A DNA stretch of 64,000 bases from assembly GCF_056712565.1 (NCBI RefSeq), contig NZ_CM160072.1; one strand, written 5' to 3'. The first letter of the stretch is position 1, and every line of letters starts with the position of its first letter. Position numbers and translations under genes: made by a program. The notes beneath the pieces are model-generated. The model did not search any database, was not told the DNA's origin, and saw only the letters and a program-made list of their open reading frames with translations. Shown here piece after piece: positions 1 through 54,530 of the stretch.

Positions 1-234
1 GGTTATGAGCTGACAGTACTGGCTGCGGTGGTGCTTGGCGGCACTAGTTTGCTCGGCGGGCGCGGCACGTTAACCGGTACTTTGCTCGGCGTGGTGTTGT
101 TGGCAGTGATGCAAAACGGGCTAAATTTATTGGGAGTCTCGTCTTACTGGCAAACATTGATCACCGGCATCATCATCGTTGCCAGCATTAGCGCCACGGC
201 GTGGAGTCAGCATCAGAACCGGAGTCTGCTATGA
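1..234 (+). CDS. ABC transporter permease, C-terminal fragment (CUT2 / RbsC-LsrC-like); gene begins upstream of window
   Basis: Frame open from base 1 to stop at 234; C-terminal motif GGTSLLGGRGTLTGTLLGVVLL...NGLNLLGVSSYWQ typical of monosaccharide-type ABC permeases; overlaps start of next permease gene. Confidence 0.6.
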   Translation, partial: GYELTVLAAVVLGGTSLLGGRGTLTGTLLGVVLLAVMQNGLNLLGVSSYWQTLITGIIIVASISATAWSQHQNRSLL

Positions 235-1187
235 AAAAATCGTGGCGTAATAACGTTGAGTTTTACTTGATCGGCCTGCTGGTGCTAACTGTTGCCGCCT
301 TCAGCATTACTATGCCGGAGATTTTCTGGTCGATAAGTAATTTCCAGTCCGTCGCTTCGCAAATGCCCGTGCTGGGCATTCTGGCGTTGGCTATGGCGGT
401 GACCATGCTTTGCGGTGGCATTAACTTGTCAATTATAGCCACTGCTAACGCCTGTTCACTGGTGATGGCGTGGGTGGCGACTCAGTATCCACCAGGTATT
501 GCTACGGTTGTCGCTACGCTGCTGGCGGGCGCTGGCGCGGCGGTGATAATCGGTTTATGTAACGGCGTATTGATTGCTGGTATTCGAGTGTCGCCAATTC
601 TTGCAACACTTGGGATGATGACGTTGCTCAAAGGGGTTAATATTCTGGTGACAGGCGGTAGCGCCATTGCCAATTATCCCTCATGGGTGCTGTGGTTGAA
701 TCATGCACAGTGGTTCGGTATTCCGCTACCGATGTGGTTGTTTACCGCAGTGGCGCTGGGGCTGTGGATATTGCTGGAGAAAACGCCGCTCGGTAAATCC
801 ATTTATCTGATTGGTTCTAACGAACGAGCAACACTTTACTCCGGTATTAACACTCGTCGGGTGCTGATATGGGTGTATGTCATTTCCGCCTTGCTTTGTG
901 CGGTAGCGGCATTTTTGATGATGTCGAAACTCAACTCGGCTAAGGCCTCTTATGGCGAATCTTACTTGCTGGTGTCAATCCTCGCGGCAGTACTCGGCGG
1001 GGTTAATCCGGACGGCGGCAGCGGGCGGATAATTGGTATGGTGCTGGCGCTGTTTCTTCTGCAAATTATTGAAAGCGGCTTCAATATTCTCGGTATAAGC
1101 CCCTACCTGACGATGGCCTTATGGGGAACGTTGCTGCTCTGTTTCATTCAGGCTCGCGGCATGTTAGGGCTGGATCGGGTGGTTTAA
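201..1187 (+). CDS. ABC transporter permease (CUT2 family, LsrD/RbsC-like)
   Basis: 328-aa hydrophobic ORF; motifs IGSNERATLYSGINTRRV and VLGGVNPDGGSGRIIG resemble the conserved loop and C-terminal region of ribose/AI-2 type permeases; 34-bp overlap with upstream permease suggests operon. Confidence 0.65.
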   Translation: MESASEPESAMKKSWRNNVEFYLIGLLVLTVAAFSITMPEIFWSISNFQSVASQMPVLGILALAMAVTMLCGGINLSIIATANACSLVMAWVATQYPPGIATVVATLLAGAGAAVIIGLCNGVLIAGIRVSPILATLGMMTLLKGVNILVTGGSAIANYPSWVLWLNHAQWFGIPLPMWLFTAVALGLWILLEKTPLGKSIYLIGSNERATLYSGINTRRVLIWVYVISALLCAVAAFLMMSKLNSAKASYGESYLLVSILAAVLGGVNPDGGSGRIIGMVLALFLLQIIESGFNILGISPYLTMALWGTLLLCFIQARGMLGLDRVV

Positions 1188-1273
1188 ATATTGGCTATAT
1201 TCAATGGACGCGTTTTGCCGCGATGACATATCAGGCATCGCCAAATACACATAGCTAATCAGGAGTAAACACA

Positions 1274-2323
1274 ATGAAGATCAAAGCTGTTGGTGCATAT
1301 TCCGCTAAACAACCGCTTGAACCGATGGATATCACCCGGCGTGAACCGGGACCGCATGATGTCAAAATTGAAATCGCTTACTGTGGCGTCTGCCATTCCG
1401 ATATCCACCAGGTCCGTTCCGAGTGGGCGGGGACGGTTTATCCCTGCGTGCCGGGCCATGAAATTGTAGGGCGCGTGGTAGCCGTTGGTGATCAGGTAGA
1501 AAAATATGCGCCGGGCGATCTGGTTGGTGTCGGCTGCATTGTCGACAGTTGTAAACATTGCGAAGAGTGTGAAGATGGGCTGGAAAACTACTGTGATCAC
1601 ATGACCGGAACCTATAACTCGCCGACACCGGATGAACCGGGCCATACTCTGGGCGGCTACTCACAACAGATCGTCGTTCATGAGCGATATGTTCTGCGTA
1701 TTCGTCACCCGCAAGAGCAGCTGGCGGCGGTGGCTCCTTTATTGTGTGCAGGAATCACCACGTACTCGCCGCTACGCCACTGGCTGGCCGGGCCGGGTAA
1801 AAAAGTGGGCGTGGTCGGCATCGGCGGTCTGGGACATATGGGGATTAAACTGGCCCACGCGATGGGGGCGCATGTGGTGGCATTTACCACTTCTGAGTCA
1901 AAACGCGAAGCGGCAAAAGCCCTGGGGGCCGATGAAGTTGTTAACTCACGCAATGCCGATGAGATGGTGGCTCATGTGAAGAGTTTCGATTTCATTTTGA
2001 ATACAGTAGCTGCGCCACATAATCTCGACGATTTTACCACCTTGCTGAAGCGCGATGGCACCATAACGCTGGTTGGTGCGCCTGCGACACCGCATAAATC
2101 GCCGGAAGTTTTCAACCTGATCATGAAACGCCGCGCGATAGCTGGTTCTATGATTGGCGGCATTCCAGAAACTCAGGAGATGCTCGATTTTTGCGCCGAA
2201 CATGGCATCGTGGCTGATATAGAGATGATTCGGGCCGATCAAATTAATGAAGCCTATGAGCGAATGCTGCGTGGTGATGTGAAATATCGTTTTGTTATCG
2301 ATAATCGCACACTAACAGACTGA
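1274..2323 (+). CDS. yahK: NADPH-dependent aldehyde reductase, Zn-dependent alcohol dehydrogenase family
   Basis: 349-aa ORF; GHEIVGRVVAVG zinc-ADH signature, structural-zinc Cys cluster CKHCEECEDGLENYC, Rossmann GVVGIGGLGHMG; RBS aggag 8 bp upstream. Confidence 0.85.
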   Translation: MKIKAVGAYSAKQPLEPMDITRREPGPHDVKIEIAYCGVCHSDIHQVRSEWAGTVYPCVPGHEIVGRVVAVGDQVEKYAPGDLVGVGCIVDSCKHCEECEDGLENYCDHMTGTYNSPTPDEPGHTLGGYSQQIVVHERYVLRIRHPQEQLAAVAPLLCAGITTYSPLRHWLAGPGKKVGVVGIGGLGHMGIKLAHAMGAHVVAFTTSESKREAAKALGADEVVNSRNADEMVAHVKSFDFILNTVAAPHNLDDFTTLLKRDGTITLVGAPATPHKSPEVFNLIMKRRAIAGSMIGGIPETQEMLDFCAEHGIVADIEMIRADQINEAYERMLRGDVKYRFVIDNRTLTD

Positions 2324-14598: not shown

Positions 14599-14625
14599 TC
14601 GGCTGGGTTACCGCGAGCGTAGTTT

Positions 14626-14707
14626 ATGCCGGATGCGGCGTGAACACCTTATCCGGCCTACGTAGATCTCTGAAATTGTAGGCCTGATAAGCGGAGCGCA
14701 TCAGGCA
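14626..14707. repeat. REP pair between codA and lacA
   Basis: atgccggatgcggcgtgaacaccttatccggcctac and inverted tgtaggcctgataagcggagcgcatcaggca. Confidence 0.8.
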
Positions 14708-14718
14708 ATTTTGCTTAT

Positions 14719-20980: not shown

Positions 20981-21181
20981 ATTCACCACCCTGAATTGAC
21001 TCTCTTCCGGGCGCTATCATGCCATACCGCGAAAGGTTTTGCGCCATTCGGCGAGGCTGACGCCGAAGTGAGATTTAAAATGCTGACGCCAGGTCACAGG
21101 TGAGAGAAAACCCACGCCAATACACCTACGGCGTTTACAGGTATACTCGCTAAAAATTATTCAGCGGGTTTGGAAACAAAG

Positions 21182-21721
21182 ATGGCAAAACTTACCTTAC
21201 AAGAGCAGTTGCTCAAAGCGGGACTAGTCACCAGCAAAAAAGCGGCGAAGGTGGAGAGAACGGCGAAAAAATCGCGCGTTCAGGCGCGTGAAGCTCGGGC
21301 TGCGGTAGAAGAAAATAAAAAGGCACAGCTTGAGCGTGATAAACAGCTTAGCGAACAGCAAAAACAAGCGGCGTTGGCGAAAGAATATAAAGCCCAGGTG
21401 AAGCAGCTCATTGAAATGAACCGAATCACCATTGCCAATGGCGATATTGGTTTTAACTTCACTGACGGCAATCTGATTAAGAAGATTTTTGTCGATAAGC
21501 TCACACAGGCGCAGTTGATTAATGGTCGTCTGGCGATTGCTCGCTTGTTGGTCGATAACAATAGCGAAGGTGAATACGCCATTATTCCCGCCAGCGTTGC
21601 CGATAAAATTGCTCAGCGTGATGCCAGCAGTATTGTGTTGCACAGCGCGCTCAGCGCCGAAGAGCAGGATGAAGACGATCCGTATGCCGACTTCAAAGTG
21701 CCTGATGATTTGATGTGGTAA
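21182..21721 (+). CDS. yaiL: DUF2058-family protein
   Basis: Start at MAKLTLQEQLLKAGL inside a TTG-initiated ORF; lysine/glutamine-rich charged protein, 179 aa. Confidence 0.75.
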   Translation: MAKLTLQEQLLKAGLVTSKKAAKVERTAKKSRVQAREARAAVEENKKAQLERDKQLSEQQKQAALAKEYKAQVKQLIEMNRITIANGDIGFNFTDGNLIKKIFVDKLTQAQLINGRLAIARLLVDNNSEGEYAIIPASVADKIAQRDASSIVLHSALSAEEQDEDDPYADFKVPDDLMW

Positions 21722-32788: not shown

Positions 32789-33313
32789 GGTCTGCCTGAT
32801 GTTTGTGGAATCGAGGAGCATAGTATACCTGAAGCAGGCTGGGTGTGTTTTACGAAAGTTGTCGCGATGTTGACAAAAAGAGAATGAAAAAGAGGTCAGG
32901 ACATCTTTGTAATAGAAATAGCAATAATTTCATATTCACTGAAAATATTTTTAATTTTTATTTATAGCCATAGATTATTGTTTTTGGGGATTTGGTGACG
33001 TTTCCAAAAAGTGAATAGCTTAAAGTTCATTGCTTATTGATACATTATTTGTCTGTTTTTGTTGTTTTATATTTTCATGGTCTATGTTTTAAAATTAACG
33101 CTTTCATTAACGTATTGAAATATTGTGTTTTTGTTATTTCTTTCTTTGTGTGTGTTCACGTGCTTTATATATGTCCGCAATCGGACTTAGGGGAAAGAAT
33201 AATTGAACCATTCCTCTATAACGCCGCATAATCGTAAACGCGAAACATAATATGTTTTCTATGCATTGATAATTGATGGATCAACTTATTACGTCCCTGA
33301 GGAGGGATGACAA

Positions 33314-33970
33314 ATGCACTCCTGGAAAAAGAAACTTGTAGTATCACAATTAGCATTGGCTTGCACTCTGGCTATCACCTCTCAGGCTAATGCAGCAAAC
33401 TATGATACCTGGGGGTATCATGACAACACCACGACCGATTTAGTTTGGCCGTATGACACTGACAATGATGGAATTGCCGATGCTGGCGGCATGGACCCGA
33501 TGGGTTCAGACGGTAACTACGTAACTTACAATGGTTTTGTTTACTATAACAATGCCAATGGCGATTTCGATACTGTCTTTAAAGGCGATACCGTTAACGG
33601 TACCATTTCTACTTATTACTTGAATCATGATTACGCTAGCGGTTCTGTTAACCAGGTAGATATCAGCAATTCAGTAATTCATGGGGCAATCACCTCTGAA
33701 CTGCCATTTGGTTATTACAGCATTACTCCTGCAGAAGTTAATGCTAAAGGTGAAGTTGTAACTCCACAGACCTATAATGGCTATAATTTCTATAACGGAA
33801 TCACTACTGACCTTGACTACAATTGGTACGATGGTGACGTATTCACTCTGAACGTATCCAATTCCACCATTGATGATGACTATGAAGCTCTTTACTTCAC
33901 TGACACATATCTTGATGGTGATAAATCTAAGTCAACCAATGAAACGTTCTATACCGCTCTGGGTGTTGCA
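33314..33970 (+). pseudogene. yaiT: Autotransporter-family protein, N-terminal fragment, truncated by IS2
   Basis: Signal peptide MHSWKKKLVVSQLALACTLAITSQANA, N/T/D-rich passenger repeats; reading frame runs into the IS2 end at 33971. Confidence 0.7.
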
Positions 33971-33981
33971 TGGATTTGCCC

Positions 33982-34887
33982 CTATATTTCCAGACACCTG
34001 TTATCACTTAACCCATTACTGGCTTGCTGCCGTAGATATTCCCGTGGCGAGCGATAACCCAGTGCACTATGCGGATGCCATTCGTTATAATGCTCGAACG
34101 CCTCTGCAAGGTTCTTTGCTGCCGTTAACCCGTCTGGTTTGGGCATGACACTGATGTAGTCACGCTTTATCGTTTTCACGAAGCTCTCTGCTATGCCGTT
34201 ACTCTCCGGACTCCGCACCGCCGTGCTCTTCGGTTCAAGCCCCAACATCCGGGCAAACTGCCGTGTTTCATTAGCCCGGTAGCATGAACCATTATCCGTC
34301 AGCCACTCTACTGGAGACGCCGGAAGCTCGTTGCCGAAGCGGCGTTCCACCGCTCCCAGCATGACGTCCTGTACTGTTTCACTGTTGAAGCCGCCCGTAG
34401 TGACCGCCCAGTGCAGTGCCTCACGGTCACAGCAGTCCAGCGCGAACGTGACTCGCAGTTTTTCTCCGTTATCACAGCGGAACTCGAACCCGTCAGAGCA
34501 CCATCGCTGATTACTTTCTTTCACAGCCACTCTGCCTGTATGTGCCCGTTTCGATGGCGGTACAGCAGGTTTTCGCTCAAGCAACAGCGCATTCTGGCGC
34601 ATGATCCGGTAAACACGTTTGGCATTGATCGCAGGCATACCATCAAGTTCTGCCTGTCTGCGAAGCAGCGCCCATACCCGACGATAACCATACGTGGGCA
34701 GCTCTCCGATAACATGGTGTATACGGAGAAGCACATCCGTATCATCAGTGTGACGACTGCGGCGGCCATCCATCCAGTCATCGGTTCGTCTGAGAATGAC
34801 GTGCAACTGCGCACGCGACACCCGGAGACAACGGCTGACTAAGCTTACTCCCCATCCCCGGGCAATAAGGGCGCGTGCGCTATCCAC
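33982..34887 (-). CDS. insD: IS2 transposase OrfB
   Basis: 301-aa ORF with DDE integrase core, ends [29 protein letters not shown]. Confidence 0.9.
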
Positions 34888-35210
34888 TTTTTTGCCCGTC
34901 CATATTCAACGGCTTCTTTGAGGAGTTCATTTTCCATCGTTTTCTTGCCGAGCAGGCGCTGGAGTTCTTTAATCTGCTTCATGGCGGCAGCAAGTTCAGA
35001 GGCAGGAACAACCTGTTCTCCGGCGGCGACAGCAGTAAGACTTCCTTCCTGGTATTGCTTACGCCAGAGAAATAACTGGCTGGCTGCTACACCATGTTGC
35101 CGGGCAACGAGGGAGACCGTCATCCCTGGTTCAAAGCTCTGCTGAACAATTGCGATCTTTTCCTGTGTGGTACGCCGTCTGCGTTTCTCCGGTCCTAAGA
35201 CATCAATCAT
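34845..35210 (-). CDS. insC: IS2 transposase OrfA (HTH)
   Basis: Start at [26 protein letters not shown]; 121 aa; overlaps insD as expected for programmed -1 frameshifting. Confidence 0.9.
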
Positions 35211-52324: not shown

Positions 52325-53236
52325 TTAACGTTGTGCTTCGCCACCTAATCCTTCAATCAGGTTTTGAATTAACGCTGCCAGTTCACCAGTCATCAGGATG
52401 AAATCGGCATCAAAGCGCTGGGCGAAATCTTCACGGTCGATATCTTCGTTTTGATCGCGCAGCTCGTCGCAGAACTTCAGACGCTTGAGCGAACCATCGT
52501 CGCACATCACAAACTGAATGCGCTGCTGCCAGTCAAGCGCCAGTTTAGTCACCACTTTTCCGGCTTCAATGTGGTTGGTGATCTCTTCGCTGGTCAGATC
52601 TTGTTTCTTCGCGCGGATCACGCCGCCATCTTCCAGCAACGATTTCAGCTCGGCTTCATCAAGCAGCTGGAAGCCCTGTGCCGCGCTGCCGGAACGTACC
52701 CATTCGGTCAGCGTCAGTTCAATCGGGTTTTCCATGCTCAATGGTACAACCGGTAACGACCCCAGGCTTTTACGCAGCAGTGCCAGCGTATCTTCCGCTT
52801 TTTTGGCGCTGGCGCAGTCCACCATAATCAAACCGTTAACCGTGTCGATCCACATCATTGTCTGGCTAAAACGGCTGAAAGCACGCGGCAGCAGAGAGTG
52901 CAGCACTTCGTCTTTCAGCGAATCTTTTTCGGTTTTCTTCAGCTTACGCGCCTGTTCTGCTTCCAGTTTGGCGATTTTCGCTTCCAGCGCCTGTTTAATC
53001 ACCGGGGACGGGAGGATTTTTTCTTCTTTGCGCGCACAGATAACAATTTGACCATTGGCAACGTGCGTTAACGCATCGCTGTGCGATCCCATCGGAGGTA
53101 CCCAGCCCATCTTCGCCATGTCCTGGCTGCCGCATGGGGTAAATGCCATCGAGGCTAGCTGTTTTTCCATCTCTTCTGCACGCAGCGAAATCTCGCGGCT
53201 AAGACGGTAAACCATTAAATTTTTGAACCACAGCAT
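52325..53236 (-). CDS. rdgC: Recombination-associated protein RdgC
   Basis: Start at [12 protein letters not shown]; 303 aa; track ORF extended 24 codons. Confidence 0.9.
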
Positions 53237-53360
53237 GATAATTTCCACGGCCTTGTCGTTAAATTTAGCGGGCATGATAACGAATTGTCGGCGGCCTTGC
53301 ATTGCCAATCCGGTTGTCCGTCTCTACGCTATTGATATTGAAAAAAATAAGGAGAGTACC

Positions 53361-54269
53361 GTGCGTATAGGTATCGATTTAGGCGGCACCAAAACTGAAG
53401 TGATTGCATTGGGCGATGCAGGGGAGCAGTTGTACCGCCATCGTCTGCCCACGCCGCGTGATGATTACCGGCAGACTATTGAAACGATCGCCACGTTGGT
53501 TGATATGGCGGAGCAGGCAACAGGGCAGCGCGGAACGGTAGGTATGGGCATTCCAGGTTCGATTTCGCCCTACACCGGCGTGGTGAAGAATGCCAATTCA
53601 ACCTGGCTCAACGGTCAGCCATTCGATAAAGACTTAAGCGCGCGGTTGCAGCGGGAAGTGCGGCTGGCAAATGACGCCAACTGTCTGGCGGTTTCAGAAG
53701 CGGTAGATGGCGCGGCAGCGGGAGCGCAGACGGTATTTGCCGTGATTATCGGCACGGGATGCGGCGCGGGCGTGGCATTCAATGGGCGGGCGCATATCGG
53801 CGGCAATGGCACGGCAGGCGAGTGGGGACACAATCCGCTACCGTGGATGGACGAAGACGAACTGCGTTATCGCGAGGAAGTCCCTTGTTATTGCGGTAAA
53901 CAAGGTTGTATTGAAACCTTTATTTCAGGCACGGGATTCGCGACGGATTATCGTCGTTTGAGCGGACATGCGCTGAAAGGCAGTGAAATTATCCGCCTGG
54001 TTGAAGAAAGCGATCCGGTAGCGGAACTGGCATTGCGTCGCTACGAGCTGCGGCTGGCAAAATCGCTGGCACATGTCGTGAATATTCTCGATCCGGATGT
54101 GATTGTCCTGGGCGGCGGAATGAGCAATGTAGACCGTTTATATCAAACGGTTCCACAGTTGATTAAACAATTTGTCTTCGGCGGAGAATGTGAAACGCCG
54201 GTACGCAAGGCGAAACATGGTGATTCGAGCGGCGTACGCGGCGCTGCATGGTTATGGCCACAAGAGTAA
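53361..54269 (+). CDS. mak: Fructokinase/mannokinase (ROK family)
   Basis: GTG start at [14 protein letters not shown] with RBS aaggagag; ROK zinc motif CYCGKQGC; 302 aa. Confidence 0.88.
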
Positions 54270-54289
54270 AAAAACCAGGCAATTGGCGT

Positions 54290-54530
54290 ATCATGCCTGA
54301 TGCGACGCTTGCCGCGTCTTATCAGGCCTACAAAGTGAGCCGTCCGGTAGGCCGGATAAGGCGCTCGCGCCGCATCCGACAACAAATAACGCGCACAGTG
54401 GCGGCAACCCCCCAGTGCTCCGATGCCTGATGCGACACTGGCGTGTCTTATCAGGCCTACAAAATGAACAGTCCCGTAGGCCGGATAAGGCGTTCACGCC
54501 GCATCCGGCAACAAGCGATGCGCACTGCGA
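54290..54530. repeat. REP/BIME cluster (four REP copies) between mak and araJ
   Basis: Alternating gcctgatgcgacgct...cgtcttatcaggcctac and ggccggataaggcgctcgcgccgcatccgaca units. Confidence 0.8.

Follow-up and report, generated by a model that had tools for sequence, protein, structure and literature searches.

The window analysed here is a stretch of 64,000 nucleotides (NCBI RefSeq assembly GCF_056712565.1, contig NZ_CM160072.1) that opens inside a permease gene. The 3' end of this gene, consisting of the last 77 codons and the stop, is situated at positions 1–234 on the plus strand. In the sequence and its list of open reading frames, the frame is open from base 1, and the stop codon TGA occupies positions 232–234. 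A second permease gene, complete and coding for 318 amino acids (WP_000750346.1), follows on the plus strand at 231–1187. Its ATG start codon at position 231 overlaps the stop of permease 1 by four bases (ATGA), so that the overlapping permease pair described in the original prediction is found at these coordinates. Permease 2 is followed by a spacer of 86 bp (1188–1273), which carries AGGAG, the ribosome-binding site of yahK. The yahK gene itself (1274–2323, plus strand) encodes an NADPH-dependent aldehyde reductase of 349 amino acids with zinc-type ADH domains (Pfam). It is a core gene that lies outside the transporter. A scan of the corresponding region of the type strain (L001 15700–21400, see below) revealed no terminator-like hairpin in the 86-bp spacer (L001 21188–21273), a result that bears on possible read-through into yahK. 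In the accessible part of the published RNA-seq results for EHEC, yahK is not among the L-arabinose-responsive genes.

The product of permease 2 matches the Pfam family BPD_transp_2 with an E-value of 2.4e-31. The 77-residue fragment of permease 1 matches the C-terminal end of the same family with an E-value of 9.8e-06 and 25.3 bits, just below the cut-off of 26.8; this score is marginal because only a fragment of the protein lies in the window. The full-length permease 1 of Escherichia coli ATCC 11775 gives an E-value of 4.6e-34. Both products thus belong to the family expected of a CUT2-type importer with two permeases, as had been predicted. The labels "RbsC/LsrC-like" and "LsrD-like" that had been attached to them are valid at the level of the family and not beyond it. 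In NCBIfam, both permeases fall in the RbsC/AraH/LsrC/LsrD group, with all scores far under the equivalog cut-offs.

Window bases 1–1273 are 100% identical to the type strain E. coli ATCC 11775, and positions 1–21273 differ from it at 3 bases. Of the transporter, only the permease genes are inside the window; the binding protein, the ATPase and the promoter were read from the public genome of ATCC 11775 (locus L001). In this genome, permease 1 begins 738 bp before the first base of the window and has a full length of 323 amino acids (WP_000818902.1, L001 19263–20234). The gene order is yahE, fdrA (yahF), yahG, yahI, yahJ, an ASCH-domain gene, the binding protein, a fused ATPase, permease 1, permease 2 and yahK. 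The ATPase and the binding protein, which it had been proposed to look for upstream, are both present there. The periplasmic binding protein (L001 16754–17737) matches PF13407 (Peripla_BP_4) with an E-value of 4.5e-63, and the ATPase is a single polypeptide of 494 amino acids with two fused ABC_tran stretches (Pfam). With two BPD_transp_2 permeases, a double ATPase and a Peripla_BP_4 protein, the locus encodes an importer of the CUT2 family (TC 3.A.1.2).

Between the binding-protein and ATPase genes (L001 17747–17764), the sequence TCGGGGCGAAAGCCCCGA can form a G+C-rich hairpin, and a T-rich tail comes after it. This element may lift the expression of the binding protein over that of the membrane components. 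Published EHEC RNA-seq gives an induction by L-arabinose of 26-fold for Z0415 and only 7-fold for Z0418, which is consistent with such a role; the value for Z0417, however, is 43-fold.

The ASCH-domain gene (L001 16090–16500, 136 amino acids) lies between yahJ and the binding-protein gene, in E. coli only. Among the loci taken from one genome per species, no ASCH homologue was found beside the operon in other genera; the only match outside E. coli, at 45% identity, is in a single Serratia locus at a distance of 10 kb from the operon. The gene was considered as a part of the transporter and rejected, as the transporter has no ASCH companion in other genera, although K-12 has lost both. In the published RNA-seq, L-arabinose raises the expression of Z0414, which is probably the ASCH gene, 3.7-fold.

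The locus as a whole is almost certainly the aau operon of EHEC, Z0415–Z0419, with window positions 1–1187 as its distal end. Aau ("accessory L-arabinose uptake") was described on O-island 17 by Cottam et al. (Nat Commun 2024, PMC11127945), and Z0418 and Z0419, the orthologues of permeases 1 and 2, are its two permeases (Cottam et al.). The binding protein of ATCC 11775 is identical in 326 of 327 residues (E-value 1.8e-213) to Protein Data Bank entry 9I1M, which is AauA of EHEC (Cottam et al., Nat Commun 2025, PMC12307932); the sole difference is D199V. Permease 1 is identical to the copy in O157:H7 strain 611 in 322 of 323 residues and permease 2 in 314 of 318, and strain 611 has the same layout of yahJ, ASCH gene, aau and yahK at the same site. 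The published reverse primer for cloning the end of Z0419 matches window positions 1170–1187 exactly. The residues that contact ribulose, Lys-37, Trp-43, Glu-118, His-167, Glu-196 and Ser-223, are all retained in AauA of ATCC 11775 (6/6), where these numbers follow 9I1M and are equal to the ATCC 11775 numbering plus one. The statement that the substrate of the transporter is unknown does not stand, as the system has been published and AauA has been crystallized with D-ribulose. Published work thus already covers the transporter together with its regulator, ligand and role in gut colonization.

In EHEC, the aau promoter is active only with L-arabinose and requires AraC (PMC11127945). Isothermal titration calorimetry gave AauA a Kd of 1.98 µM for D-ribulose and 598 µM for L-arabinose, and in the crystal α-D-ribulose is contacted by Trp-43, His-167, Glu-118, Lys-37, Glu-196 and Ser-223 (PMC12307932). 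D-Ribulose itself does not induce aau (Cottam et al.; PMC12307932, PMC11127945). When L-arabinose is present, D-ribulose imported by Aau is phosphorylated by AraB, and growth is faster (PMC12307932). An aau deletion mutant grows normally on L-arabinose alone and is outcompeted in the mouse gut (Cottam et al.; PMC11127945, PMC12307932). Transport of D-ribulose and the growth benefit with L-arabinose were reported for EHEC ZAP193 only.

Applied to the locus studied here, the two permeases would pair as a heterodimer to form the membrane channel of an ABC importer of the CUT2 family, which AauA and one double-domain ATPase polypeptide would complete. AraC together with L-arabinose would switch on aau, and D-ribulose would enter through Aau. 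The L-ribulokinase AraB would then phosphorylate D-ribulose and feed it into the pentose phosphate pathway, with an advantage in growth and gut colonization. The aau genes of ATCC 11775 are all open, and its ATPase has Gln-87 where that of O157:H7 strain 611 has a stop codon (Q87*, L084 4286–5770). A premature stop at nucleotide 259 of the ATPase gene is the null allele reported for TUV93-0. The stop in strain 611 matches it, so the system is probably dead in this strain. Judging from the near-identity to the EHEC proteins, the open genes, the absence of Q87*, the six retained contact residues and an AraC-like site described below, the Aau copy of ATCC 11775 is probably functional and works in the same mode as in EHEC. 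This strain could serve as a non-EHEC model for Aau, with a copy that is apparently intact, unlike that of EDL933-type O157.

The original prediction had also suggested an importer of the autoinducer-2 (Lsr) type. In RefSeq, the binding protein bears the product name "autoinducer 2 ABC transporter substrate-binding protein", LsrB structures are distant matches to it (E-values about 1e-24), and the LsrC and LsrD models match the permeases weakly. Against the NCBIfam cut-offs, the scores are 111 versus 384 for LsrB, 383 versus 586 for LsrA, 115 versus 388 for LsrC and 147 versus 500 for LsrD, so that the RefSeq name is a misnomer and the suggestion is not supported. Moreover, no lsrK, lsrR, lsrF or lsrG lies in the 20 kb to each side of the locus in ATCC 11775, and the published EHEC work has D-ribulose in the AauA pocket and induction by L-arabinose. 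We regard the probability of an Lsr system as negligible. Membership in AraFGH was rejected in the same way (AraG 418 versus 689; AraH 157 and 141 versus 378), as was membership in Rbs (RbsB 46 versus 337; RbsA 372 versus 745; RbsC 150 and 161 versus 398). Because all equivalog scores are far under their cut-offs, Aau is a separate subfamily of CUT2.

In K-12 MG1655, the end of yahJ is separated from yahK by 376 bp, with no transporter between them. The original prediction was correct that K-12 has no ABC transporter before yahK, and the transporter of the window does not occur at this position in MG1655. The additional claim that K-12 has different genes here is mistaken: yahF (fdrA) to yahJ are also upstream in ATCC 11775, and K-12 merely lacks about 5.1 kb. 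Within the 376-bp spacer, three blocks align to ATCC 11775. Block 1 comprises 62 bp after yahJ. In block 2 (70 bp), the final 15 ASCH codons are followed by 22 bp of downstream sequence, and in block 3 (158 bp), 72 bp from the 3' end of permease 2 are joined to the spacer that precedes yahK. Between consecutive blocks, K-12 lacks about 0.6 kb and about 4.6 kb of the ATCC 11775 sequence. The permease 2 remnant is 98% identical over the aligned stretch, which extends through yahK, and the ASCH remnant lies inside an open reading frame of 20 codons (L002 12579–12641). In BL21(DE3), a 75-bp permease remnant is marked as a partial pseudogene by PGAP. Because both ends of the locus remain, K-12 is a deletion derivative and not a naive empty site. 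The core gene yahK adjoins a deletion scar in K-12 and the Aau operon in the window.

The distribution was surveyed in 5,426 complete E. coli genomes, and the transporter was counted as present when at least 80% of window positions 1–1273 was matched. It is present in 2,217 genomes (41%), in agreement with the expectation of strain-variable content. The K-12-type scar occurs as one contiguous piece in 2,803 genomes (52%), at 95–100% identity. About 2,800 genomes match only positions 1116–1273 of the plus strand, which is the right edge of the scar as it survives in K-12-type genomes. Window base 1116 is the right breakpoint in 16 of the 17 partial matches of a spread sample. The remaining genomes have neither the transporter nor a contiguous scar, for example as a result of an IS1-associated deletion. 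In strain 2017.02.04CC (L003 7288–8044), IS1 replaces the sequence from the middle of yahE to 44 bp before yahK.

Several side observations concern other parts of the window. The yahL gene is missing at positions 2545–2546: the interval from yahK to yahM lacks 835 bp that K-12 has (L002 14171–15005). As aau and yahL occur together in O157:H7 strain 611, this is a second, independent indel beside aau. Between codA and lacA (14599–14718), cynR-cynTSX are lacking. Between lacI and yaiL (20981–21200), a 99-bp fragment of a GlxA-family regulator is all that remains, and the mhpR-mhpT block is lacking. Between iprA and hemB there is an intact autotransporter gene of 995 amino acids (33264–36251, minus in the orientation of the record; L085 27760–30747), at a position where K-12 presumably has the disrupted yaiT pseudogene. 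The transporter gene araJ is situated at 53142–54326 on the minus strand; it is among the genes induced by L-arabinose (PMC11127945).

Two accounts of the origin of aau have to be compared. In the Cottam papers, aau is called horizontally acquired and island-borne (PMC11127945, PMC12307932). Taken literally for the present locus, it would be recent O-island 17 cargo gained by ATCC 11775 and EHEC, and K-12 would represent the original empty site. No close homologue was found in representative genomes of other Escherichia species, and the binding proteins of Klebsiella, Franconibacter and Mangrovibacter are 90–92% identical to AauA, which would suit such a gain. The K-12 site, in contrast, still contains remnants of permease 2 (its last 72 bp) and of the ASCH gene (its last 15 codons), and the scar itself varies, with 95–100% identity among the 2,803 genomes. 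The annotation of ATCC 11775 contains no integrase, tRNA or IS element at the borders of the locus and no flanking repeats there. There is also no compositional sign of a recent transfer, the G+C content of the aau genes being 48–51% against 52% for the region. Finally, a lineage with about 10% divergence has the operon at the same place. This is SCPM-O-B-8794 (L031), which is labelled E. coli and has about 90% DNA identity to ATCC 11775, with the operon directly upstream of yahK. From its divergence, it probably belongs to another Escherichia lineage. In SCPM-O-B-8794, the whole yahB-yahJ block is absent, and pdeL directly adjoins the final 100 bp of the ASCH gene, beyond which lie the aau operon and yahK (L031 8065–15803).

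We consider a recent island insertion very improbable. The scar remnants, the G+C content, the lack of mobile genes and the operon in SCPM-O-B-8794 favour a long residence at the yahJ-yahK site followed by loss. In such a history, aau would have been at this site before the K-12-type lineages arose, and a later deletion would have left the scar. The 41% of genomes with an intact operon and the 52% with the scar would then represent an old presence/absence polymorphism in E. coli. Long residence would still leave room for an older horizontal acquisition that preceded the loss or the diversification of E. coli, and such an acquisition would also agree with the absence of close homologues from the single representatives of other Escherichia species.

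A comparative set with one genome per species returned 80 loci, and the four-gene unit is present in the same order in about 78 of them. The loci fall into two groups. The closer group, with binding proteins 65–92% identical to AauA, occurs in Enterobacterales, Pasteurellaceae, Vibrio and Aeromonas and resembles Aau. The distant group, at 58–61% identity, occurs in Citrobacter amalonaticus, Pluralibacter, Cedecea, Serratia and Pantoea and resembles Rbl of Citrobacter rodentium. In the closer group, araC is adjacent in 26 loci, and araB, araA and araD are adjacent in Providencia, Limnobaculum, Budvicia and Leminorella. In the distant group, an FGGY pentulose kinase and a SIS-domain gene are found in 18–19 loci. 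The neighbours exceed their NCBIfam cut-offs, with scores of 491 versus 208 for AraC, 801 versus 428 for ribulokinase, 822 versus 622 for AraA and 695 versus 409 for the pentulose kinase.

In ATCC 11775, a candidate AraC site with TCCATA and TAAC half-sites, TGCCCGTTTTGTCCATA-TTTA-TAACCAAATTTTTAATA, is situated 112 bp before the aauA start codon (L001 16602–16639). The motif used to detect it upstream of the binding-protein gene consists of TCCAT(A/G), 4 bp and a TAGC-like box, which we take to be the half-site arrangement of araBAD I1-I2. An I1-I2-like motif is present upstream in 52 of 79 loci, where the background expectation is 0.011 per 460 bp, and the loci that carry it span Enterobacterales and Pasteurellaceae. 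Most loci of the closer group have it, and the group at 58–61% identity lacks it throughout. This pattern supports direct control of aau by AraC through the putative site. An AraC binding site upstream of aau is not described in PMC11127945 or PMC12307932. The AraC-like site conserved across the loci and the presence of araC or araBAD beside the operon in many genera are, together with the deletion scar of K-12 and the intact allele of the type strain, the modest additions made here.

Because the family often lies beside araC or araBAD and the I1-I2-type site is conserved (52/79), we think it fairly probable, though well short of certain, that control by AraC is ancestral in a widespread gammaproteobacterial family and not a "hijack" by EHEC, with the pattern in E. 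coli reflecting an old deletion. The scar and the conserved site would move the account of an acquired island and of hijacking towards ancestral membership of the AraC regulon with later loss. If AraC control is indeed ancestral, it could be speculated further that the original substrate of the family was a sugar of the arabinose pathway and not D-ribulose.

A related proposal is that Aau in nature serves mainly to take up L-arabinose or one of its derivatives, such as its furanose form or L-ribulose, with D-ribulose as a secondary substrate. The operon responds to L-arabinose through AraC and not to D-ribulose, and the I1-I2-like site in 52 loci and the adjacency of araC in 26 loci and of araBAD in the four genera named above all point in this direction. 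The Rbl-like clade at 58–61% identity, which has its own pentulose kinase and no AraC site, fits the same division. These arguments are opposed by calorimetry, in which D-ribulose binds more than 200-fold tighter than L-arabinose, by the D-ribulose seen in the crystal and by the deletion mutant, which has no growth defect on L-arabinose alone. For Aau this proposal is therefore unlikely in our judgement, and it is speculative where L-ribulose and arabinofuranose are concerned. The conserved link to araC and araBAD leaves room for a different main substrate in some carriers.

The closest known system is Aau of EHEC O157:H7, with which the ATCC 11775 locus shares the chromosomal site, the gene order, near-identical proteins and the contact residues. 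The hosts differ, as ATCC 11775 is a phylogroup-B2-type strain and not EHEC, and the ATPase gene is intact in ATCC 11775, whereas EDL933-type O157 carries Q87*. The Klebsiella pneumoniae orthologue in Protein Data Bank entry 3D02, a structural-genomics structure, matches AauA over residues 26–327 with an E-value of 3.6e-188 and nearly all residues identical. It comes from another genus and was deposited under the misleading name "putative LacI-type transcriptional regulator"; no paper on this entry was found.

Among the CUT2 systems of K-12 (TC 3.A.1.2), AraFGH, RbsACB, LsrACDB and YtfQRT-YjfF are built from parts like those of Aau, including a double ATPase of about 500 amino acids. Lsr and Ytf have two different permeases, as does Aau, whereas AraFGH and Rbs each have just one permease gene. 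[quoted passage not shown] Rbl-type loci contain their own FGGY pentulose kinase (695 bits versus a cut-off of 409) and a SIS-domain gene and have no AraC-type site. In contrast, Aau has no kinase of its own and relies on AraB.
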